Assembly: GCA_964587425.1 (NCBI GenBank)
Contig: CAZPLB010000002.1
Coordinates: forward strand, 31,285-95,284
Direction of reading: 5' to 3'
Length of the DNA: 64,000 bases
DNA from: an uncultured Gammaproteobacteria bacterium
Lineage (GTDB): Bacteria > Patescibacteriota > Microgenomatia > UBA8517
A model generated the notes under the pieces. It was not told where the DNA came from, made no database searches, and was given only the letters and a program-made list of their open reading frames with translations. Position numbers and translations under genes: made by a program. Positions 37 through 20,810 of this stretch are shown in pieces (the stretch's first letter is position 1; every line of letters begins with the position of its first letter).

Positions 37-3000
37 TCAAATCTTTGCCTCCTCCAAAATTTGTGCAATGGTGTGGGACAGTTCCTCACTCCATGAAATC
101 CCTTGTGGGAAAGTAACCTTTTCATCCTTCCCTTCAAAAAGGAGAGTCACTTTCTGTGTACCAGGATTCTCCAAAAATACCTTCTTAATTTCTTTTAATT
201 TATCAATGTCAGTATTCTTTGGTATTCTCACAAAAAATAGTGCATCTTTCTGTGAGGCATTTTCCTTGGTGAAAACATTCTCTACAATTAAATTAACCTC
301 CTCATCTCGAACATCCACTCTTCCGGATACTAGGATTGGTTTTGCCTCACTCCAAATCTCAAGTGTATCTTTGTAAATTTTGGGGAAAACCACGAGATTC
401 AGCGTTCCAGTCCCATCCTCCATTTTTACAAAAGCCATAGAGGCTCCGCTTTTCTTGGTTACAACGTTTCTAACTTCACTCACTAGCCCTGCAATCTTCA
501 CAGTGTCTTTGTATTCATTTTCTGTATTCAATTCATCAATCTTATGTGTTGCAAAATTAAGTAGGTTGCCAAGAGTTTCAGACATTGGTTTTGCCGAAAG
601 TGAAAGCCCAAGTAATTGTCTCTCAAGGTTTTCAATTTCACCCTCAGTAAATTCATCCATATCAATAATGAAAGTCTGTGAACTCTCGGTTAATTTTTCA
701 GAAAGTTCGCCAAATAAATCCTGTTGAGATGTAGCTTTCTTTGGTTTTACTCTTTCACGAATTTCATCAATAGAAGCCAAAATCGCAGCTCTTTTACCAA
801 ATGCCGAGAAAGCTCCAACTTTAATAAGGCTCTCCAATACCCTTTTATTAATTCTCCTGGCATCAGTTCTCGAAAGGAAATCAACCAGAGTCAAAAATCT
901 TCCCTCATTTCGAACAGTTAGTATTGCATCAATTGCAGCCTCTCCAACATTTTTAATAGCAGATAGTCCAAATCGAATTGCTTCGCCATTCAAAGATTTC
1001 TCATCCTTCACTATGGTAAAACCAACAACACTTTCATTAATATCAGGAGGTAAGACATTTATTCCCATTCTTCTGCATTCGCTAATTGCGGCCGAAATTT
1101 TGTCTGTGTCCCCACTTTCACAGGTCAAAAGTGCACACATATAGGGGACTGGGTAGTTGGCCTTCATATATGCAGTTTGGTATGAAACCATACCATATGA
1201 AGCTGCATGAGCCTTGTTAAATCCATATGCCTGAAATGGTTCAAATAATTTCCAAAGGGTATCTGCAAAATCCTGCGTCTGTCCATGAGCTACAATTCCA
1301 GTTGTGAATTTTTCCTTCTGTGCAGCCATCTCTTCAGGAATTTTCTTACCCACTGCTTTTCTGAATTTATCTGCTTCCTCCCAGGTATATCCTGCCAAAT
1401 CCAGTGCACAAAAAAGAAGATCATCCTGGTAAACAATAAGTCCATATGAAGCACCAAGAAACTTTTCCATTCTGGGATCTATATATTTAACCAAACTAGA
1501 ATCGTTTTTTCTTTTTATGTATTCAGGGATAACTGCAATTGGCCCAGGGCGGTATAAGGCTACCATTGCCATTAAGTCTTCAACCTTGTCAGGTTTCAAC
1601 TCTTTGATATACCTTGTCATCCCGGAGCTAGAGAGCTGGAACACTCCCATGGTTTCCCCACGAGAGAGCATCTCAAATGTTTTTTTGTTGTCGAGTGGAA
1701 TTTCATGTAAATCAACGGTCTTACCAGTTCTCTCCTTCACTATTTCAATGGCAAGCCCTAAAATTGATAAATTTCGAATTCCAAGAATATCAAATTTAAT
1801 TAGTCCAACATCTTCGCATGCATGCATTTCATATTGAGTAATAACTTTCTCTCCAGATGGTTCTTTTTGAATTGGACTAAAATCTGTCATTTCGGTTGGT
1901 GCAACAACAACACCAGCGGCATGCACCGAAATGTGCCGTGCAGAGCCTTCAACATGACGGGCTAAATCCAAGATTTTCTTGCTGTCTGGATCTGTGTCGT
2001 AAAGTTCCTGAAGTTGCGGCGTGATCGCAAGTGCCTTTTCAATAGTAATTGGAAATCCTTGTTTTGGTGGAGGGATAAGTTTTGATATCCTATCTCCAAC
2101 TGCATATTCATATCCCAATACTCTTGCAACATCCCTTACTGACCCTCTCGCAAGCATTCTTCCAAATGTACATACCTGGGCAACCTTCTCTTTCCCATAT
2201 GTGTCAGTGATATATCCGATAATTTTATCCCTTTTATCATCAGCCACATCAAAATCAATATCAGGGGGGGATGGTCTATATGGATTTAGAAATCTCTCAA
2301 ACGGTAAATAATATTTAATCGGATCAACCGTGGTAATTCCCAAAACATATGAAACCAAACTCCCAGCTGCTGACCCTCTCGTATTTGTAATAATCCCCTG
2401 TTTCTTTGTCCAACTAGCCAAATCCATATCAATTAAAAAATATGGGGCATAGCCCTTGGCATTAATAATCCCTAGTTCATGATCTAACCTGTCAGTTAAT
2501 TCTTTAGATGGCTTTGGGAACTTTACTCGAAGTTTTTCATTGGCGAGTCGAACAAGGTATTCATCAGCCTTCTCATCATTAGGAAGAGGAAACTTAGGAA
2601 AGAACCATTTACCCAAGGTTGTTATTTCCAAATTGCACTTTTCTCCAATTGCTACAGTATTTTTAATAGCATCGGGAAAGTCTGGAAAAAGACCAATCAT
2701 CTCCTCAGGACTTCTGGCATAATAAGTAGGGGTATCAACCATTCTTATTCTCTTGGTTTCCCTAACTTGTTTCCCAGTTGCAACACACACAAGAGCATCT
2801 TGTGCACTTGCATCCTCCTTATTTATATAGTGTGCATCGTTTGTGGCAACTAGTGGAATTCCAAGTTCTCGAGAAAGCTTCACTATCTCAGTATTTACCA
2901 AAGTCTCAATTTCAGCTTGACGAGCTAACTCTGCCTTCATCTCGAGAGGCGCATTCTCAAGGTGCTTTGCATATTCATGCCTTTGAATTTCAAGATAGTA

Positions 3001-3510
3001 ATCTTTACCAAAAACTTGATTGAACCATTGAGCTGTTTTTTTTGCAGTTCCCAAGTCTCCATCAATTATGGCTCTTGCCACCTCTCCATTAACACAAGCC
3101 GAAGTGCAAATTAGCCCCTTGGAATATTTTTCAAGAATTTCTCTTTGAAATCTTGGTCTAAAATAATAACCCTCCAAGTGAGCAATGGAGGTTAGCTTCA
3201 TCAGATTTTTATACCCTTCTTCATCCTTAGCAAGAAGAAGTAGATGGTTGTAGTTGTATCTTTCTTTCTCAGGTTTCTCTTTGTGATCGTATAAAACTGT
3301 GTAGGCTTCAACTCCAATGATTGGCTTCACATTTTCTTTTTTTGCTCCTTTATAGAATTCAACAGCACCATACATTGTTCCATGATCTGTAATAGCTACA
3401 GTATCCATCTCCATTTCTTTGACTCGGTTCATCAACTTTGAAACCTTAGAAAGTCCATCAAGAAGTGAGTATTCTGTGTGTAAATGAAGGTGAACAAATT
3501 TTCCAGCCAT
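37..3510 (-). CDS. dnaE: DNA polymerase III alpha subunit (PHP domain N-terminus, 1157 aa)
   Basis: N-terminal PHP motif HLHLHTEYSLLDG..ITDHG, length and overall DnaE-like layout; ATG verified at 3510. Confidence 0.9.
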   Translation of the reverse strand: MAGKFVHLHLHTEYSLLDGLSKVSKLMNRVKEMEMDTVAITDHGTMYGAVEFYKGAKKENVKPIIGVEAYTVLYDHKEKPEKERYNYNHLLLLAKDEEGYKNLMKLTSIAHLEGYYFRPRFQREILEKYSKGLICTSACVNGEVARAIIDGDLGTAKKTAQWFNQVFGKDYYLEIQRHEYAKHLENAPLEMKAELARQAEIETLVNTEIVKLSRELGIPLVATNDAHYINKEDASAQDALVCVATGKQVRETKRIRMVDTPTYYARSPEEMIGLFPDFPDAIKNTVAIGEKCNLEITTLGKWFFPKFPLPNDEKADEYLVRLANEKLRVKFPKPSKELTDRLDHELGIINAKGYAPYFLIDMDLASWTKKQGIITNTRGSAAGSLVSYVLGITTVDPIKYYLPFERFLNPYRPSPPDIDFDVADDKRDKIIGYITDTYGKEKVAQVCTFGRMLARGSVRDVARVLGYEYAVGDRISKLIPPPKQGFPITIEKALAITPQLQELYDTDPDSKKILDLARHVEGSARHISVHAAGVVVAPTEMTDFSPIQKEPSGEKVITQYEMHACEDVGLIKFDILGIRNLSILGLAIEIVKERTGKTVDLHEIPLDNKKTFEMLSRGETMGVFQLSSSGMTRYIKELKPDKVEDLMAMVALYRPGPIAVIPEYIKRKNDSSLVKYIDPRMEKFLGASYGLIVYQDDLLFCALDLAGYTWEEADKFRKAVGKKIPEEMAAQKEKFTTGIVAHGQTQDFADTLWKLFEPFQAYGFNKAHAASYGMVSYQTAYMKANYPVPYMCALLTCESGDTDKISAAISECRRMGINVLPPDINESVVGFTIVKDEKSLNGEAIRFGLSAIKNVGEAAIDAILTVRNEGRFLTLVDFLSRTDARRINKRVLESLIKVGAFSAFGKRAAILASIDEIRERVKPKKATSQQDLFGELSEKLTESSQTFIIDMDEFTEGEIENLERQLLGLSLSAKPMSETLGNLLNFATHKIDELNTENEYKDTVKIAGLVSEVRNVVTKKSGASMAFVKMEDGTGTLNLVVFPKIYKDTLEIWSEAKPILVSGRVDVRDEEVNLIVENVFTKENASQKDALFFVRIPKNTDIDKLKEIKKVFLENPGTQKVTLLFEGKDEKVTFPQGISWSEELSHTIAQILEEAKI

Positions 3511-3787
3511 GCCTTAGTATAATACACTTTCATTATCTTGAAATCCCAATAAACATGCATTACAGTAAATCATGCTATCTCCACAAGATTTAACATCGAT
3601 AAGAAAAATTTTCGACATAGAGTTGGAGAAAAAAATACCTGGTCTTGTCGAACCAATAATCACAAAAGCTCTTCTTCCTATTAAGAAAGATATTCGAAAA
3701 ATTCAAAAAGATTTGGCTAGAACTTCCGATTTTCTCGACAGAGAGATATTGACCGACAGGAAAAGAACTAAGAAACTAGAAGAACAA

Positions 3788-5086
3788 TCAACCCTCCATC
3801 AGACTTTTTAATAAAAATTGGTTAATTATTTTTGTATCTCCCTGCCCTTTTAATTCCTTTTGTACTTGTCCAATTAAAAATCCAATAACTTCACCTTTAC
3901 CTTCTCTGTAATCTTTCACCGCCTTTGGATTATCTTTCACTACTTTCTCAACAGCCTTCTTTGTATCATCTGTACTCGCAAAACTTTTTTGTGTAAGTTG
4001 ATAAATCTTTTTGATGAGTGCTGCAGGGTCATCAATATCTTTGTCCAAGTTCTGGTTCACCATAAGTCCTGCAATTATTTTTGCTGATATGTTTTCTTTT
4101 TTACCAAGTTCGACAGCTTCTTCAAAATATTCTGCCCTTTCTTTACTATCTATCAAAACATCAATATAGTTTGAAGGGAGATCAAGTTTCATATATTTTT
4201 CCCGCTTCTCACTTGGTAGTTCTGGAATCGAACCCTTTAATTTATTTATATCTTCATCCTTTAATTTCATTGGTGGAATGTCAGGCTCTGGAAAATATCT
4301 GTAGTCATTTGCCTCTTCCTTACTTCGCTGCAAGAGTGTTTTCCCACTCTTTTCGTCATATCCTCTTGTTTCTTGTCCTACTTTTTGGCTCTTTGATAAA
4401 ATTTCACTTTGCCTTTCGAATTCATATTGAAGTGCCTTCCTCAAAAATCTAAAGGAATTAATATTTTTAAGTTCTACTTTATACTTGGGAAATTCTCCTG
4501 TATCAGTTAGCGACACGTTTGCCTCGAGCCGCATTGAACCTTTCTCCATATCAGCTGTTGATATTCCAAGGTATCTCACAATCCTTTGTATCTCTTGGAG
4601 AAAATTAATTACTTCATCAACGTCTGAGAAATCAGGTTCAGTAACAAGCTCCATCAAAGGAACTCCGCTACGATTGAAATCAATTAATGATTTGCCCTCA
4701 GTATGTTGAAGTTTCCCAGTATCCTCTTCAATGTGAACTCTTCTGATTCGCACCTTTTCTTTTTCAAGGGTTAAATTCCCTTCAATGCAAAGAGGCAAAT
4801 CATACTGTGATATTTGATAGCCCTTTGGAAGATCTGGGTAAAAATAATGTTTGCGGTCAAATTTTGAAAATTTGTTTATTTTAGCCCCAAGTGCCAATCC
4901 AAATTTAACTGTTGAATTAATAGCTTCTTCGTTGGTAAATGGAAGTGCTCCAGGAAGTCCCAAACAAACTGGGCAAACCTGGGTATTAGCTTGTTTTCCA
5001 AAATGGTCTGCAGAACATCTGCAAAACATTTTGGATTTAGTTGAGAGCTCAATGTGCACTTCAAGTCCAATTACAAATTTATACAT
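3788..5086 (-). CDS. gatB: Asp/Glu-tRNA amidotransferase subunit B
   Basis: N-terminus VIGLEVHIEL..CRCS..VCPVCLGLPG is the canonical GatB signature; last gene of gatC-gatA-(MFS)-gatB string. Confidence 0.85.
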   Translation of the reverse strand: MYKFVIGLEVHIELSTKSKMFCRCSADHFGKQANTQVCPVCLGLPGALPFTNEEAINSTVKFGLALGAKINKFSKFDRKHYFYPDLPKGYQISQYDLPLCIEGNLTLEKEKVRIRRVHIEEDTGKLQHTEGKSLIDFNRSGVPLMELVTEPDFSDVDEVINFLQEIQRIVRYLGISTADMEKGSMRLEANVSLTDTGEFPKYKVELKNINSFRFLRKALQYEFERQSEILSKSQKVGQETRGYDEKSGKTLLQRSKEEANDYRYFPEPDIPPMKLKDEDINKLKGSIPELPSEKREKYMKLDLPSNYIDVLIDSKERAEYFEEAVELGKKENISAKIIAGLMVNQNLDKDIDDPAALIKKIYQLTQKSFASTDDTKKAVEKVVKDNPKAVKDYREGKGEVIGFLIGQVQKELKGQGDTKIINQFLLKSLMEG

Positions 5087-5088
5087 AC

Positions 5089-6342
5089 TTAAGATAATTT
5101 GAAATTTTTCCTATGAATCAAGGCAAAAACTCCAAAACACATGAGAGCTAAAATTATAAGTAAGAATTGAACACCCAAAATTTCAGATATTGTAGCTGAG
5201 AAAAGAACTGGCAGCATTGTTGCAAGTGTTGTAAGAAACCAGAAATTCCCAAAAACTCTCCCCAAAAATTCCTTTGGTGTATTTTCCTGTAGATATGTAA
5301 CTGATGGAACCAAAATAGAGACAACAAGAAAACCAACTATGCCAAAAAGGATTACTCCAACAAATGTTCTGACAGAAATTACTTCAATTAATGGAAGTCC
5401 TAAAGTAACAAGTAATATATCAACACCTAAAAAGGCTATCGCCCCAAAAACAAATCTATTTTTCAACATAAACCTGGCATATTTTTTAGAAAGAATTGAG
5501 GTTCCAATTACAGCCCCAATTCCAGCAGGCATAACAATAAACAGTCCAGAACTCCCTGCCTTTATGGAAAGAATGCTTGTGGCAATTCCTGGGAGGTTAG
5601 TAACTATAACGGCTAATATGACCTGAAGCCACAACAGCAAAAGAAATGGCAGAAGAATGGTTTTGCTGTCCCTAATGAATCTATATCCTTCCAATATTTC
5701 AGTGAAGAAATGATTCACTTTGTCCTCAAACTCACCTTTCAAATTAAATCTCATCTTTGGTCTGTCATTTGGTAAGGTAAAAGTTGAAAGGTAGGCAGAA
5801 AAAAGCATGAAAGCAGCAAGAACTGTAGTTGCCCTAAATCCTAAAATTTCAGTAAATATTCCACCAAGTCCAAACCCAACAACCAAGGCAGACTGCTGGG
5901 TAATGAAAAATATTCCATTTGCCTGAGGAAGCTTCTCTTTTGGAACAAGTAGGGGCAATGCCGATGCTTCAGCTGGAACATAGAACTGATTAAGAAATGA
6001 ATAAATGAAAACTATTGCAAACGGCAAAAATACTAAATGCCTGTAAAGAAGGAGTGCATAAATTGCGATAGTAACTGCCTGAAGAATATTTGCATACATC
6101 ATTACATTGCGCTTCCCCAAAAAGTCCACTGCAGCAGCAGCTATTGGGCCAACAATGATTGCAGGCAAGGCATATGAAATCCAAATAAATGAAGTAGCAA
6201 TACTTGAATTAGTCTGCTCAAAAACCATGATGAGGATTAAAAAGCTCATCACATTAACAGTTAGCTGCGACAAAACTTGAGATACAAGTATTGCAACAAA
6301 GTTCCTGTTACTAAAAACACTATTTCTTAAAATTTTATTCAT
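5089..6342 (-). CDS. MFS-type transporter (about 12 TM segments), embedded in gatCAB operon
   Basis: Highly hydrophobic multi-helix protein. Start moved to the ATG at 6342 because the track start is a GTG; this start overlaps the gatA stop in ATGAATAA (translational coupling). Confidence 0.65.
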   Translation of the reverse strand: MNKILRNSVFSNRNFVAILVSQVLSQLTVNVMSFLILIMVFEQTNSSIATSFIWISYALPAIIVGPIAAAAVDFLGKRNVMMYANILQAVTIAIYALLLYRHLVFLPFAIVFIYSFLNQFYVPAEASALPLLVPKEKLPQANGIFFITQQSALVVGFGLGGIFTEILGFRATTVLAAFMLFSAYLSTFTLPNDRPKMRFNLKGEFEDKVNHFFTEILEGYRFIRDSKTILLPFLLLLWLQVILAVIVTNLPGIATSILSIKAGSSGLFIVMPAGIGAVIGTSILSKKYARFMLKNRFVFGAIAFLGVDILLVTLGLPLIEVISVRTFVGVILFGIVGFLVVSILVPSVTYLQENTPKEFLGRVFGNFWFLTTLATMLPVLFSATISEILGVQFLLIILALMCFGVFALIHRKNFKLS

Positions 6343-7711
6343 GCTGAAACATTTTACCCAATTGAAAGAGAGTTTCTTCACTATTTCTTGCTCCCATCAA
6401 TTGAAAGCCTAACGGTAATCCTTTTTTTGTTACACCATTTGGTATTGCCAAACTTGGAATTCCAGAAAGATTAGCAGTTGCCGCATATATATCAGTCAAA
6501 TACATTTTCAAAGGATCATCTACTTTCTCACCCAATTTAAATGGAGGTGTCGGTGCAACAGGCGCCAAGATAGCATCAACATTCTCAAAAACTTTATCTA
6601 CTTCCTCTTTAATAATTGTTCTAACTTTCATTGCTCTCAAATAGTATTTATCATGATACCCCGCCGAAAGGACATATGTTCCAAGCATAATGCGCCGCTT
6701 TGCTTCATCCCCAAATGCATCTCGCGCCTTTCCAAAACGCACTCCATCATAGCGACCAAGATTTGACGAAACCTCAGCAGGTTGAATTATGTAGTAAGCA
6801 GAAACAGCGTATTTGGTATGAGAAAGGTTTACCTCAACAAACTTCACCCCAAGTTTCTCAAATCTTTTTTTAGCATCCATAACTGCTTCTTCAACTTCTT
6901 TGTCCAAACCTTCTCCAAAAAATTCCTTTGGTATTCCAATTTTGAAATTAGTTTTAACTTTACTACTATCACCTATATTTTTGACTGTGCTGTCGTGTCC
7001 ATCTTCACCTTTCATGACATTAAAAACTGTTTCAATGTCTTCAACATTTTTTGTTATAGCTCCAACTGAATCAAGTGAACTTGCCATAGCAATTACGCCG
7101 TATCTTGAGACTCTTCCATAGGTTGGCTTGAGTCCAACTACACCGCAGTAAGAGGCAGGGAGACGTGTTGATCCGCAGGTATCAGTAGCAGTTGCAATCA
7201 AAGAGAAGTCAGAGGCAACAGAGGCTCCAGAACCAGATGATGAACCGCCAGGAACATGTTCACTATTAATTGGATTCAGTGTCAGACCAAAGTCTGAATT
7301 CTCGCCAGAACTTCCATGCGCCCATGCATCACAGTTTGCCTTGCCAATCATAATACCTCCCGCCTCCTCAATTTTTTTGACTACAGTAGCACTATATGCC
7401 GGAACATAATCTTCAAGGAGTTTTGCACCAGCTGTAGTTCGAACACCTTTTGTTGAAATAATATCTTTATGAATTACAGTTACTCCCAACAGTGGATATT
7501 CTTCAAATGCTTTATCACCTAGTTGAGAAATTAAAGAATCGCACTTTTTGGCTTGTTCAAATGCCAAATCCTCAGAAATGGTTAAAACAGCATTCAATTT
7601 TTTGTTTTTGCTTTTTATGTTCCCCAAATATGAATTAACCAAGTCCACTGCTGTAAATTCTTTTTTCAAAAGCCCGTCCTGTGTTTCTTTAATTGATTTA
7701 GGTAAGTTCAT
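6335..7711 (-). CDS. gatA: Glutamyl-tRNA(Gln) amidotransferase subunit A (amidase signature family)
   Basis: Amidase signature GGSSSGSGASVA plus Ser-cisSer-Lys context; position between gatC and gatB. Confidence 0.85.
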   Translation of the reverse strand: MNLPKSIKETQDGLLKKEFTAVDLVNSYLGNIKSKNKKLNAVLTISEDLAFEQAKKCDSLISQLGDKAFEEYPLLGVTVIHKDIISTKGVRTTAGAKLLEDYVPAYSATVVKKIEEAGGIMIGKANCDAWAHGSSGENSDFGLTLNPINSEHVPGGSSSGSGASVASDFSLIATATDTCGSTRLPASYCGVVGLKPTYGRVSRYGVIAMASSLDSVGAITKNVEDIETVFNVMKGEDGHDSTVKNIGDSSKVKTNFKIGIPKEFFGEGLDKEVEEAVMDAKKRFEKLGVKFVEVNLSHTKYAVSAYYIIQPAEVSSNLGRYDGVRFGKARDAFGDEAKRRIMLGTYVLSAGYHDKYYLRAMKVRTIIKEEVDKVFENVDAILAPVAPTPPFKLGEKVDDPLKMYLTDIYAATANLSGIPSLAIPNGVTKKGLPLGFQLMGARNSEETLFQLGKMFQHE

Positions 7712-18783: not shown

Positions 18784-20106
18784 CTACTTTCCGGTGATTC
18801 GATACCAATCTTGCGTAGTCTGGAGAACATATAAAACTGGAGGAAGGTTGTCGCGTACCCACTTATTTATTACATAGTTTTCATCTCTTTCTCTTTTTTC
18901 TGTGCTAACAAAAATTATATTTTTACCAAGGTTACAAAATACACTTCCTTCTGCTGCATTACATGCCCAAATATTTCTGGTAATTTCCAAAGATTTTTGT
19001 CTAATTTGGTTTTCGGGGAATAACTTTTTCTTTTTCTGACTTTCAGCAATCTTATCTACTGCTTCCTGAAACTTACGATTCCAATCTCTGTCAAAATCTG
19101 GATCTCTAAAACTAGTCAAATTTTTCACAATCTCTGATTTAATGTTTTTATATTGAGAGTCATCCTTAGATATTTCCGAAAAAGGTATAATTGTAATTTG
19201 ATCAGATAGGGTTTTGGAATAGTTAACCAAATTTTCCACATAAAGTTTTATATTTTCAAGATTCTCCGCTGTCACTGAACCATATCTACCAGTTTCTGTG
19301 TAATCTGTATCGGCCACAAAAATAGTCAAATTTGATTTTATGCTGTTAAACTGCAATAAATTAACTAAATTTAACATTTCTTGAATTATTTTGGGTACAG
19401 GTTTAAGCTTCAATTCTGGGTTTTTGGCATATGCAAACAGATCAGAAATCGACTCATAACCTCCTTTGTTATCATATTTATTGATTAAACAAAGCATTGT
19501 TATAAGATTGACAGATTCCCCACTTATTGCTCTTACTAGGATATCTTCAAACTTAATCTTGTTTTGCCTTATATCGTCTGTTTTTCTCTGATCCAATTCA
19601 AACATTATTGTGACAAATGTAATTGCATCATCAGGATTATTAATCTTTTCCAACCCCTTAGACAGAACTTTTTCCAGCCAAGTTTTCATACGTTTTTCGT
19701 TTTCCTCTGCCAAATATTCAACAACATCCTCGTCTGTTATGTTTCTTCTTAGCTCCTCCTGTATAACTTCTTGAGTAAAGGCAAGACGGCTTTTGTTATC
19801 AGGAAATTCGTAACCTTCTTCTTCAAGAAGATCAAGTCTTTTACACACCATTTCCTCAAAATAATCACTGTAATCCATACTAGGTAAATCTCTTAACGCT
19901 CGAATTTTATATGCTAGAACTTCGTTGCTTAAATTATTAAGGGCAATTCTAGCTTGTTTTTTTCTTTTGATGGCCACTTCTATTTTAGGAAATAGTATTT
20001 CGGTTATTTTGTTTAATTCGCTCTTTGATAATTCATCTTGAAACTCTTCAAGAGTTAAATTACCAAGAGCATTATATGGAGGAGCTCTTCGCCTTGAATA
20101 TTCCAT
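18784..20106 (-). CDS. Hypothetical protein (440 aa), no recognisable family
   Basis: Long ORF with a verified ATG start and no signal peptide; no motif recognised. Confidence 0.5.
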   Translation of the reverse strand: MEYSRRRAPPYNALGNLTLEEFQDELSKSELNKITEILFPKIEVAIKRKKQARIALNNLSNEVLAYKIRALRDLPSMDYSDYFEEMVCKRLDLLEEEGYEFPDNKSRLAFTQEVIQEELRRNITDEDVVEYLAEENEKRMKTWLEKVLSKGLEKINNPDDAITFVTIMFELDQRKTDDIRQNKIKFEDILVRAISGESVNLITMLCLINKYDNKGGYESISDLFAYAKNPELKLKPVPKIIQEMLNLVNLLQFNSIKSNLTIFVADTDYTETGRYGSVTAENLENIKLYVENLVNYSKTLSDQITIIPFSEISKDDSQYKNIKSEIVKNLTSFRDPDFDRDWNRKFQEAVDKIAESQKKKKLFPENQIRQKSLEITRNIWACNAAEGSVFCNLGKNIIFVSTEKRERDENYVINKWVRDNLPPVLYVLQTTQDWYRITGK

Positions 20107-20324
20107 GTACCAAACTTAGACTGACAACTTAGAAGAATATCAACTGGAGTAATATCTAAATCTGAATTCATTTGTCTTAATCTCTCAATAGCCCTTTCCT
20201 TAGAAATTCTATTTATATAATTTTCTGTTTTCTCACCACCAAAAAGTTGTCGATCCATTAATCGACTAAACAAATCCATTGAATTGTTTTCCATTTCTTT
20301 TTTCATATTATTTTTCTTTCTCAT
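20055..20324 (-). CDS. Small hypothetical protein (89 aa), begins 8 nt after the tRNA-His 3' end and overlaps the next ORF by 52 nt
   Basis: Track ORF 20055..20483 truncated to the internal Met because its N-terminal part runs across tRNA-His; could also be a frameshifted N-terminal piece of the 440-aa protein. Confidence 0.25.
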   Translation of the reverse strand: MRKKNNMKKEMENNSMDLFSRLMDRQLFGGEKTENYINRISKERAIERLRQMNSDLDITPVDILLSCQSKFGTWNIQGEELLHIMLLVI

Positions 20325-20331
20325 ATATATG

Positions 20332-20408
20332 GGTGGGTGAGGAGGATCGAACTCCCGATCTCTTGCTTCACAGGCAAGCGCTTTAAACCAAACTAAGCTA
20401 CACCCACC
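20332..20408 (-). tRNA. tRNA-His (anticodon GTG) with genome-encoded G-1
   Basis: Extra 5' G(-1) opposite discriminator C73; acceptor GTGGGTG/CACCCAC, anticodon stem CTTGC/GCAAG with loop CTGTGAA, T-arm GGGAG-TTCGATC-CTCCT. Confidence 0.8.
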
Positions 20409-20481
20409 AAAACAAAATAACCCCCGTTCACTAGCACCCACGTAAAATACGTGAATATTAGAGAACGAGGGTTTGTCCAAC

Positions 20482-20659
20482 AAAAAAGGACCCTCGCGGT
20501 CCCATCTCTATTCCATTTAGTTTTGAGCTAAATGACTTCTTGGTCCCAACTCCGCGAAAAAGCGACATTAGGTGAGTTTCTTTATACGGCAAACTACTTT
20601 CCGTCGAGTATTTGGCTCGCTGCTACCAGATCGTGACTCTGGTGACTGCATTTCTTAAC
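20482..20659 (-). ncRNA. Unclassified ~175-nt non-coding RNA candidate bounded by a consensus promoter and an intrinsic terminator
   Basis: Minus strand: TTGACT-17nt-TATAAT (20666-20694), then ~175 nt with no ORF longer than 17 codons, then hairpin GGGACC-GCGA-GGGTCC plus TTTTTT (20482-20503); sits between tRNA-His and tRNA-Thr. Confidence 0.35.
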
Positions 20660-20665
20660 AGCCTT

Positions 20666-20694
20666 ATTATAAAAGAAATAATAATCTAAGTCAA
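20666..20694 (-). promoter_or_regulatory. Sigma70-like promoter TTGACT-N17-TATAAT driving the ncRNA candidate
   Basis: Exact consensus -35 and -10 hexamers with 17-nt spacer, read from the sequence. Confidence 0.45.
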
Positions 20695-20729
20695 ATTTGA
20701 GAAGTGAAAATGATATAATTAAGCTTGCT

Positions 20730-20801
20730 GCCGGGGTAACTCAGTGGTAGAGTAGCGGTATCGTAAACCGCAAGTCGTGGGTTCAAATCCCACTCCCGGC
20801 T
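20730..20801 (+). tRNA. tRNA-Thr (anticodon CGT)
   Basis: Acceptor GCCGGGG/TCCCGGC, D-arm ACTC..GAGT, anticodon stem GCGGT/ACCGC with loop ATCGTAA, T-arm GTGGG-TTCAAAT-CCCAC. Confidence 0.8.
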
Positions 20802-20810
20802 CATACAAAA

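Follow-up and report, generated by a model that had tools for sequence, protein, structure and literature searches.

The minus strand between tRNA-His and tRNA-Thr in the window (the whole stretch of 64,000 nucleotides that was analysed) very probably encodes a transcription-attenuating T-box riboswitch leader specific for tRNA-His. T-box riboswitches are the textbook example of one structured RNA reading another, and the element described here is an unusual variant: it is transcriptional with its specifier in an apical loop, it has a built-in early hairpin and U-run, and it controls the gene of its own ligand. It is the cis-acting leader of an operon of tRNA-His and genes without assigned function (hisS too in relatives) rather than a free-standing housekeeping RNA. 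We place it in the T-box family because its discriminator, pseudoknot and specifier have the features that mark the family, while a long Stem I is missing and the Rfam score stays under the curated threshold.

An earlier note on this DNA had proposed a structured, non-coding, promoter-driven RNA in the region flanked by the two tRNA genes, and to this extent it is supported, as the flanking genes are present (Table 1) and both the promoter and the hairpin with its U-run are conserved in relatives. The identities considered there are not supported: no 6S or SRP model matched even at E ≤ 10, and in place of a lineage-specific free-standing sRNA we find a cis-acting T-box leader.

Table 1 Features of the probable T-box leader and its surroundings in the window
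Feature	Position	Strand	Description
Promoter, sigma-70-type	20694-20666	minus	-35 TTGACT 20694-20689, 17-nt spacer, -10 TATAAT 20671-20666; 11/12 consensus matches
Probable T-box leader, ~250 nt	~20659-20409	minus	Positions of promoter and T1 fall within or at the leader
Short Stem I	20650-20621	minus	Lower helix UGC 20650-20648 / GCA 20623-20621; asymmetric internal loop; upper helix above
Stem I upper helix	CCAGA 20642-20638 / UCUGG 20630-20626	minus	Closes the 7-nt apical loop
Specifier loop GUCACGA	20637-20631	minus	Apical in Stem I; His codon CAC 20635-20633, then purine G
P2, mini Stem II	20619-20605	minus	CGAG / CUCG, A-rich loop CCAAAUA
Stem IIA/B-like H-type pseudoknot	20604-20575	minus	IIA and IIB helices
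IIA helix	ACGG 20604-20601 / CCGU 20589-20586	minus	Aligns with the RF00230 CGG..CCGUUA element
IIB helix	AGUUU 20595-20591 x AAACU 20579-20575	minus	First strand is the IIA loop; register in the window read by eye
P3 hairpin, lineage-specific	20572-20545	minus	CCUAAUGUCGC-UUUUU-CGCGGAGUUGGG; between pseudoknot and Stem III
Stem III and purine flanks	20540-20510	minus	AGAAG 20540-20536 (fits RRRxG), Stem III 20535-20513, AAU 20512-20510
Antiterminator	20509-20460	minus	A1, bulge and A2: AGAGA-[UGGGACC]-GCGAGGGU ... ACCCUCGU-UCUCU
Helix A1, 5 bp	AGAGA 20509-20505 / UCUCU 20464-20460	minus	Directly 5' of the bulge
T-box bulge UGGGACC, 7 nt	20504-20498	minus	UGGN+ACC form, N = G
Helix A2, 8 bp	GCGAGGGU 20497-20490 / ACCCUCGU 20472-20465	minus	G.U closing pair beside the bulge
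T1 hairpin and U-run	20503-20482	minus	GGGACC-GCGAG-GGUCCU 20503-20487, U-run 20487-20482 (U6)
T2, canonical T-box terminator	20473-20409	minus	26-nt arms 20473-20448 / 20444-20419, then UAUUUUGUUUU; abuts tRNA-His G-1 (20408)
tRNA-His	20407-20331	minus	Anticodon GUG; encoded G-1 at 20408, C73; first gene 3' of T2
89-aa ORF	20324-20055	minus	Downstream of tRNA-His, same transcription unit
440-aa ORF	20106-18784	minus	Downstream of tRNA-His, same transcription unit
tRNA-Thr	20730-20802	plus	Flank opposite tRNA-His

Promoter and transcription unit

The TTGACT-N17-TATAAT promoter claimed in the earlier note is present and, with matches at 11 of 12 consensus positions, is the top site of a 3.5-kb scan, in which the total of promoter-like sites was not above chance (12 observed versus 13.3 expected). 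Judging from its position, it would start transcription near 20659 on the minus strand and thus a leader of ~250 nt. Promoters with at least 10 of 12 matches, ending 27-41 nt 5' of the specifier loop, were found in 22 of the 28 leaders that we compared. Promoter and T1 hairpin exceed chance because the same relative positions recur in relatives, and the expectation that both should be conserved there is borne out (T1 in 19/19 of the leaders of Group A, defined below). Between T1 and the tRNA no internal tRNA-His promoter was found at 9 or more of 12 matches.

Downstream, hisS is gone from the operon in the window, and in relatives it comes after the two ORFs that follow tRNA-His. This leaves tRNA-His and the two ORFs (89 aa and 440 aa) under the control of the switch; no Pfam domain was found in the 440-aa ORF. 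The His-responsive regulon also takes in proteins without assigned function, one of which has a cyclodipeptide-synthase/PvcA/TyrRS-like fold.

Covariance-model searches

At gathering thresholds, Rfam returned five tRNAs only in the whole window, and at E ≤ 10 the region 20400-20740 (341 nt) gave nothing beyond tRNAs, with no SRP, 6S, RNase P or tmRNA. Only after the search was narrowed to 226 nt, with filters relaxed, did RF00230 (T-box) surface, aligning end to end with positions 20655-20458 (25.7 bits, E = 3.7e-4). In one relative (L026) the same family scored 45.1 bits (E = 7e-9), and both scores lie below the RF00230 gathering score of 93. At gathering, RF00230 was called neither in the window nor in the loci of 23 relatives, and a narrowed Rfam search on another relative (L006) gave no match. 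In the Rfam comparison that had been suggested as a check, RF00230 alone scored significantly, and its model gives good alignments for Stem III and the T-box sequence. With our own family model (R1) the window scored 75.6 bits, the second-lowest value, and only one relative (L011) was lower (70.4 bits). Each locus yields a single copy with this model, the rest of the window has no further one, and we found no paralogues with other codons.

Discriminator and antiterminator

A T-box discriminator is defined by RRRxG-Stem III-AA, helix A1, the UGGNACC bulge and helix A2 with a terminal G.U pair (PMC7583486). All of these are found in the window, where 13 of 13 A1 and A2 pairs form. Among the leaders with a complete T-box core (Group A, 19 leaders including that of the window), RRRxG-Stem III-AA and the bulge UGGGACC are each present in 19/19, and the G.U pair closing A2 occurs in 17 of 18 distinct sequences.

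Base pairing was assessed on an alignment of the Group A core segments (19 leaders) in which variable loops had been swapped for GAAA. Paired cells amounted to 96.4% in the discriminator overall, versus 79.5% in shuffles and 37-61% when partners were slid, values to be read with the caveat that the segments were chosen partly by complementarity and that many sequences are closely related. Compensatory changes were seen at 12 of 20 pairs: at 7/7 tested pairs in Stem III, at 3/5 in A1 (100% paired; AAGGA/UCCUU, AGAGA/UCUCU, AAGAA/UUCUU) and at 2/8 in A2 (92% paired). The A1 variant AGAGA/UCUCU is common to the window and two relatives (L004 and L006), so that the A1 helix of the window has its own compensatory variant, which indicates selection for pairing.

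The variable position of the bulge (N = G) is complementary to C73 of tRNA-His. In tRNA-His, C73 is paired with G-1, and the authors of TBDB skip the discriminator-base criterion for His (PMC7778990). Because of this C73 to G-1 pairing, the UGGG:CCCA match is weaker evidence here than it would be for other tRNAs.

A compact decoding half

The 5' half of the leader was aligned with MAFFT across all 28 leaders. Overall, 93.7% of cells were paired (shuffles: 71.1%) and compensatory changes were seen at 13 of 17 pairs, pseudoknot included; RNAalifold predicts three nested helices of this half de novo. Together with the discriminator pairs, this is the outcome of the covariation analysis that the earlier note had recommended, and the covariation is strong.

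The hairpin CCAGA-GUCACGA-UCUGG seen in the earlier note is present at 20642-20626. It had been taken as faintly resembling SRP helix 8; it is instead the specifier hairpin of a T-box, and 'AGCAGC', judged by eye, forms the 3' strand at the base of Stem I and no SRP symmetric loop. The loop GUCACGA is identical in 27 of 28 leaders and its CAC triplet is unchanged in 28/28. This codon matches the GUG anticodon of the adjoining tRNA-His, and the invariant purine G after it and the C as third codon base conform to the specifier rule (PMC7583486). The Stem I upper helix is paired in 96% of cells, with 4/5 pairs compensatory, and the 3-bp lower helix covaries by eye (AGC/GCU, UCC/GGA, UGC/GCA, the last being that of the window). 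The RF00230 alignment sets this stem at the base of the model's Stem I, reducing 75 model positions to 6 nt in both the window and L026. The features of a long Stem I (specifier internal loop, AG bulge, distal-loop platform) are absent in these alignments. The basal internal loop is K-turn-like in L026 (UUGA / GA), not in the window (AGUCA / UA), and a K-turn at the Stem I base is convincing in some relatives such as L026 but not in the window.

The remaining helices of the decoding half are similarly well paired across the 28 leaders (P2: 99% of cells, 3/4 pairs compensatory; IIA: 99%, 2/4; pseudoknot helix IIB: 80%, 4/4). P2 takes the place of the RF00230 Stem II in the alignment, which deletes the S-turn region (GAA...AGUA), and no Stem II S-turn was identified: the Stem II position holds only a 4-bp hairpin with the loop CCAAAUA, whose adenines might conceivably stand in for it. 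The 'AGUAGA' in the P3 of one subgroup was not taken as evidence for an S-turn in P2 or P3, since its partner strand is a misfit. P3 itself is an insertion in the Rfam T-box alignments of the window and L026, and its basal helix covaries (GUCGA/UCGGC, CCUAA/UUGGG, CCAU/AUGG, CUGA/CCAG). A direct repeat, GAGUUGGGACC / GAGAUGGGACC, was also set aside; its upstream copy is the P3 3' strand plus linker, and it is unconserved outside the subclade of the window.

Two terminator hairpins

The hairpin with U6 that the earlier note had placed at 20503-20482 is present (T1). It is formed from the T-box bulge (GGACC) and the first A2 loop bases/A2 top (GGUCC), and every Group A leader (19/19) has a 5-7 bp hairpin followed by U4-8 here, its dG ranging between -4.9 and -11.7 kcal/mol. 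The note had taken it as the end of a unit of ~175 nt. An RNA of this length is plausible as an OFF-state species, but as the boundary of the unit the claim does not stand, as a larger hairpin with a U-run follows at 20473-20409 (T2).

The 3' strands of A2 and A1 (20472-20460) lie within the 5' arm of T2 (20473-20448), so that T2 and the antiterminator are mutually exclusive. Its 3' arm (A)GAACGGGAGG and the U-run occur in 19/19 Group A leaders. When the whole leader is folded, T2 forms in the MFE structure, and forcing the antiterminator gives a fold ~18 kcal/mol less stable than that with the terminator. T1 precedes the 3' strand of the antiterminator; the antiterminator therefore cannot block T1 co-transcriptionally, and the standard model leaves the avoidance of T1 unexplained. 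We suggest from the arrangement of these strands that T1 may be a weak early terminator, or a pause giving tRNA time to bind, and we propose that it buys this time because the long Stem I with its elbow-binding platform is missing. Pairing of the tRNA to UGGG would compete with T1.

Relatives and genomic context

A protein search with the 440-aa ORF gave 19 homologues, one of them named Candidatus Woesebacteria. The 440-aa protein found no related loci in the genome contigs collection, and its exact look-up led to one 3.6-kb contig only. The contigs encoding homologues share an upstream cluster (dnaB, a metallo-beta-lactamase-fold gene, a ~280-aa gene, then tRNA-His) and the order after tRNA-His (small ORF, 428-aa homologue, hisS, EamA, L31, RF1), and on all of them a homologue of the leader stands 5' of tRNA-His. 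A search pattern from the conserved 5' half (AGTCACGATN5AGSWGCN3YCAAAN{5,6}GAC) found 21 loci in a species-representative genome collection. Most are labelled Patescibacteria (Woesebacteria, Amesbacteria, Paceibacterota, 'Saccharimonadia'), and several come from TPA metagenome bins labelled Gammaproteobacteria, a label that we doubt. The final set of 28 distinct leaders comprises that of the window and 27 homologues from Patescibacteria genomes and metagenome contigs.

The leader is always upstream of, and co-oriented with, tRNA-His, hisS or his genes. Of 30 fetched leader loci, 18 have tRNA-His (GUG) directly 3' of the leader, with its G-1 often 0-10 nt from the T2 U-run, and 20 have hisS downstream; most of the others were fetched over too short a stretch to judge. 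Wherever the sequence reached far enough, tRNA-His and/or hisS usually came after the leader. At other loci the genes next to the leader encode M20 peptidases, an aromatic-amino-acid-lyase (HAL-like) protein with a PLP enzyme, or a HisG-like protein. In one of these (L015), the HisG-like gene (a weak match, E = 1e-4) is followed by a sequence that resembles the HisD N-terminus by eye.

A second set of leaders (Group B; 8 leaders and 1 degenerate copy) retains the promoter, Stem I with CAC, P2, the pseudoknot and P3, and scores 70-102 bits with model R1. These leaders are without UGGNACC, A1 and A2 and have plain terminators instead, the first of them strong. Group B leaders occur mixed in with Group A relatives, and tRNA-His/hisS or a HisG-like gene continues to follow them. 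Candidates for a substitute antiterminator in Group B were not retained, as the complementarities were seen by eye only and MFE folds were indecisive.

Proposed mechanism

With a tRNA gene behind its terminators, the switch can only operate at the level of transcription. By analogy with the known T-box mechanism, from which we infer both tRNA binding and the sensing of aminoacylation, the decoding module (the Stem I loop with CAC, P2, the IIA/B pseudoknot and P3) would bind the GUG anticodon of tRNA-His, and the discriminator would capture the free 3' end CCCA of the uncharged tRNA. This capture would stabilise the antiterminator A1 and A2, which occupies 20472-20460 and so prevents T2, and RNA polymerase would read on into tRNA-His, the 89-aa ORF and the 440-aa ORF (and hisS in relatives). 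With charged tRNA-His, or with no tRNA, T1 and T2 would form and transcription would stop at 20482 or ~20409. The OFF state would leave a leader RNA of ~175 nt or ~250 nt.

Alternative readings

That promoter and hairpin with U6 bracket ~175 nt, and that T1 is kept throughout Group A, would also fit a free-standing, trans-acting sRNA running from promoter to T1, be it of the housekeeping kind (6S, SRP variant) or a lineage-specific sRNA such as a 'sponge' that binds tRNA-His, with no downstream control. Group B, in which a strong first terminator remains alongside the decoding half but the acceptor-end sensor is lost, lends this idea some weight, as the terminated RNA could be the main product there. 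We nevertheless consider it extremely unlikely. The interval between T1 and T2 is the covarying complementary strand of the T-box antiterminator and would be superfluous to an RNA ending at 20482, and the element is constantly 5' of, and co-oriented with, tRNA-His, hisS or his genes. None of the gene-type Rfam families, 6S and SRP included, gave a score, and against shuffles the 181-nt stretch shows no unusual stability (z = -1.35, a value that is not informative).

A decayed T-box remnant, in which charging is no longer sensed and the element serves as a constitutive attenuator or processing signal before tRNA-His, might be suspected from the missing hisS, from the low R1 score of the window (only L011 is lower), from an RF00230 score below that of L026, and from the loss of the discriminator in Group B. 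We regard this as very unlikely, given that the discriminator of the window is complete (the full set of A1 and A2 pairs, UGGGACC, the G.U pair and RRRxG-Stem III-AA) and that the compensatory A1 variant shared with L004 and L006 indicates selection for pairing. The earlier note had seen no ORF over 17 codons; this was mistaken, as a 27-codon ATG ORF (20651-20568, minus) and a 44-codon TTG ORF (20592-20458, minus) exist. The former is preceded by an A/G-rich stretch 5' of its ATG and could in principle be a small protein gene, a reading to which we give almost no credence: the ORF is not conserved, because an ATG 5' of the Stem I hairpin is present in only 7 of 28 leaders, and substitutions track base pairing, not codon patterns. 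The tRNA-His-specific T-box leader thus remains the reading that we prefer.

Significance

A full-text literature search for T-box with 'Candidate Phyla Radiation' or 'Patescibacteria' gave no report, and a search of titles and abstracts gave no case of T-box leaders controlling tRNA genes; absence from either search is not proof. Since the curated Rfam threshold misses them, leaders of this kind have probably gone without annotation in CPR genomes, and the covariance model R1 or the search pattern given above can be used to annotate more members. The leader family marks a His-responsive regulon in ultra-small Patescibacteria, and it is rare for a riboswitch to have the gene for the tRNA that it senses under its control.

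These observations could be joined into a broader and more doubtful reading, which we offer tentatively and consider unlikely as a whole, namely an undescribed T-box class of Patescibacteria that combines platform-free attenuation, own-ligand feedback and sensor loss in Group B. T1 would then hide the T-box bulge and act as a pause or first checkpoint that compensates for the missing elbow platform. The tRNA-His gene, under its own riboswitch, would form a feedback loop on tRNA-His supply, and Group B might represent an anticodon-only sensor of the tRNA-His level or a free-standing tRNA-binding RNA.

Comparison with known systems

The leader resembles 6S RNA and bacterial SRP RNA in length and promoter-to-terminator layout. 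Unlike 6S RNA, it is without an end-to-end closing stem or central bubble, and unlike SRP RNA it lacks a helix 8 that has a GNRA cap as well as symmetric and asymmetric loops, its own hairpin loop being a codon-presenting 7-mer.

Canonical transcriptional T-boxes include those of Bacillus subtilis tyrS and glyQS and the hisS leaders of Firmicutes. With the canonical form (RF00230) the His leader shares the codon followed by a purine, the IIA/B pseudoknot, RRRxG-Stem III-AA, A1/A2, the 7-nt bulge UGGNACC and the closing G.U pair. As in canonical T-boxes, the terminator shares a strand with the antiterminator and an aminoacyl-tRNA synthetase operon is controlled. It differs in having a Stem I of ~30 nt with an apical codon and no specifier internal loop or elbow platform, a Stem II reduced to a 4-bp hairpin in which no S-turn can be recognised, P3 as an additional hairpin, and a long A2 (8 bp) whose top, with the bulge, forms T1. 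The cognate tRNA gene comes first among those regulated, the hosts are Patescibacteria (CPR), and the Rfam score is under gathering.

Transcriptional T-boxes generally need the elbow-binding platform of a long Stem I for fast enough tRNA binding, and a short Stem I with an apical loop is tied to translational T-boxes, mostly of Actinobacteria (PMC7583486). The His leader family breaks this link between a short apical-loop Stem I and translational control. As they are described in PMC7583486, which cites Sherwood et al. 2015, the 'ultrashort' Stem I T-boxes of actinobacterial ileS belong to the translational class, and in this account they share with the His leader the short Stem I, the apical specifier, the lack of an elbow platform, the reliance on Stem II and IIA/B, and insertions atop helix A2. 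On the same description, the ileS T-boxes use a Shine-Dalgarno sequestrator, whereas the His leader has intrinsic terminators and a tRNA gene; it further differs from them in its specificity (His versus Ile), in a much smaller Stem II and in the additional P3 and T1.

Leaders and genes downstream of the His leader

In Group B, the homologues of the His leader (the tRNA-His-specific T-box riboswitch leader) without UGGNACC, which comprises L007, L009/L010/L022, L011, L015, L016, L019, L025, L032 and the degenerate L021, the codon-presenting half of the T-box is retained and both the UGGNACC bulge and the antiterminator are gone. These losses apparently occurred in several independent events, and downstream of Group B leaders there is still tRNA-His/hisS or a HisG-like gene. 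A leader and synteny of this Patescibacteria type also occur in several loci whose records are TPA metagenome bins with 'uncultured Gammaproteobacteria' or 'Pseudomonadales' in the title (L015, L018, L020, L025-L027 and L029-L032), labels that are probably wrong or placeholders.

The 3' CCA of the window tRNA-His is not fully encoded, because just 'CA' follows C73, and its D-loop is unusually long (AGUUUGGUUUA). Behind this tRNA, the 89-aa ORF shares its last 52 nt with the beginning of the 440-aa ORF; in relatives the counterpart small ORF encodes 76-123 aa and overlaps or abuts the large ORF. In L018 and L023, two tandem ORFs lie behind the leader and tRNA-His at the position equivalent to the 440-aa ORF. 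They are paralogous to one another (BLASTP E 3e-9 and 2e-15). BLAST finds no significant match between them and the 440-aa protein. Short motifs are common to them and its family, namely a hydrophobic run ending in C-P and then ADTN/ADTD.

Two plus-strand promoter-like sites, from a 3.5-kb scan whose total was not above chance (12 versus 13.3 expected), lie back to back with the T-box promoter region, overlapping it. Both face tRNA-Thr, and together with the T-box promoter they may form a divergent promoter pair.

Features of the window and of Patescibacteria loci with a homologous leader
Feature	Locus	Position	Strand	Remarks
440-aa ORF	window	18784-20106	minus	start shared with end of 89-aa ORF
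89-aa ORF	window	20055-20324	minus	after tRNA-His
tRNA-His	window	20330-20408	minus	G-1 encoded, C73
TTAACA-16-AATAAT	window	within 20642-20682	plus	10/12 matches
GTGACT-17-TATTAT	window	within 20642-20682	plus	9/12 matches
tRNA-Thr	window	20730-20802		
Tandem ORF pair	L018	oriented 2351-4605		5' of hisS
Tandem ORF pair	L023	oriented 5521-7568		
M20 peptidases	L014, L030			directly behind His leader
Aromatic-amino-acid-lyase (HAL-like) gene and PLP-dependent enzyme	L025			directly behind His leader
PLP-type ORF	L028			directly behind His leader; homologous to that of L025
HisG-like gene	L015			directly behind His leader; weak match, E 1e-4
188-aa and 246-aa proteins without assigned function	L012, L013			directly behind His leader

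In other Patescibacteria, different genes stand directly behind the His leader. The HisG-like gene is followed 3' by an apparent HisD N-terminus, as judged by eye. The lyase of L025 is split into two ORFs, and a HAL-like start in L028 is a by-eye reading only. A starvation-induced switch controlling a histidine-degrading lyase would be an odd pairing.
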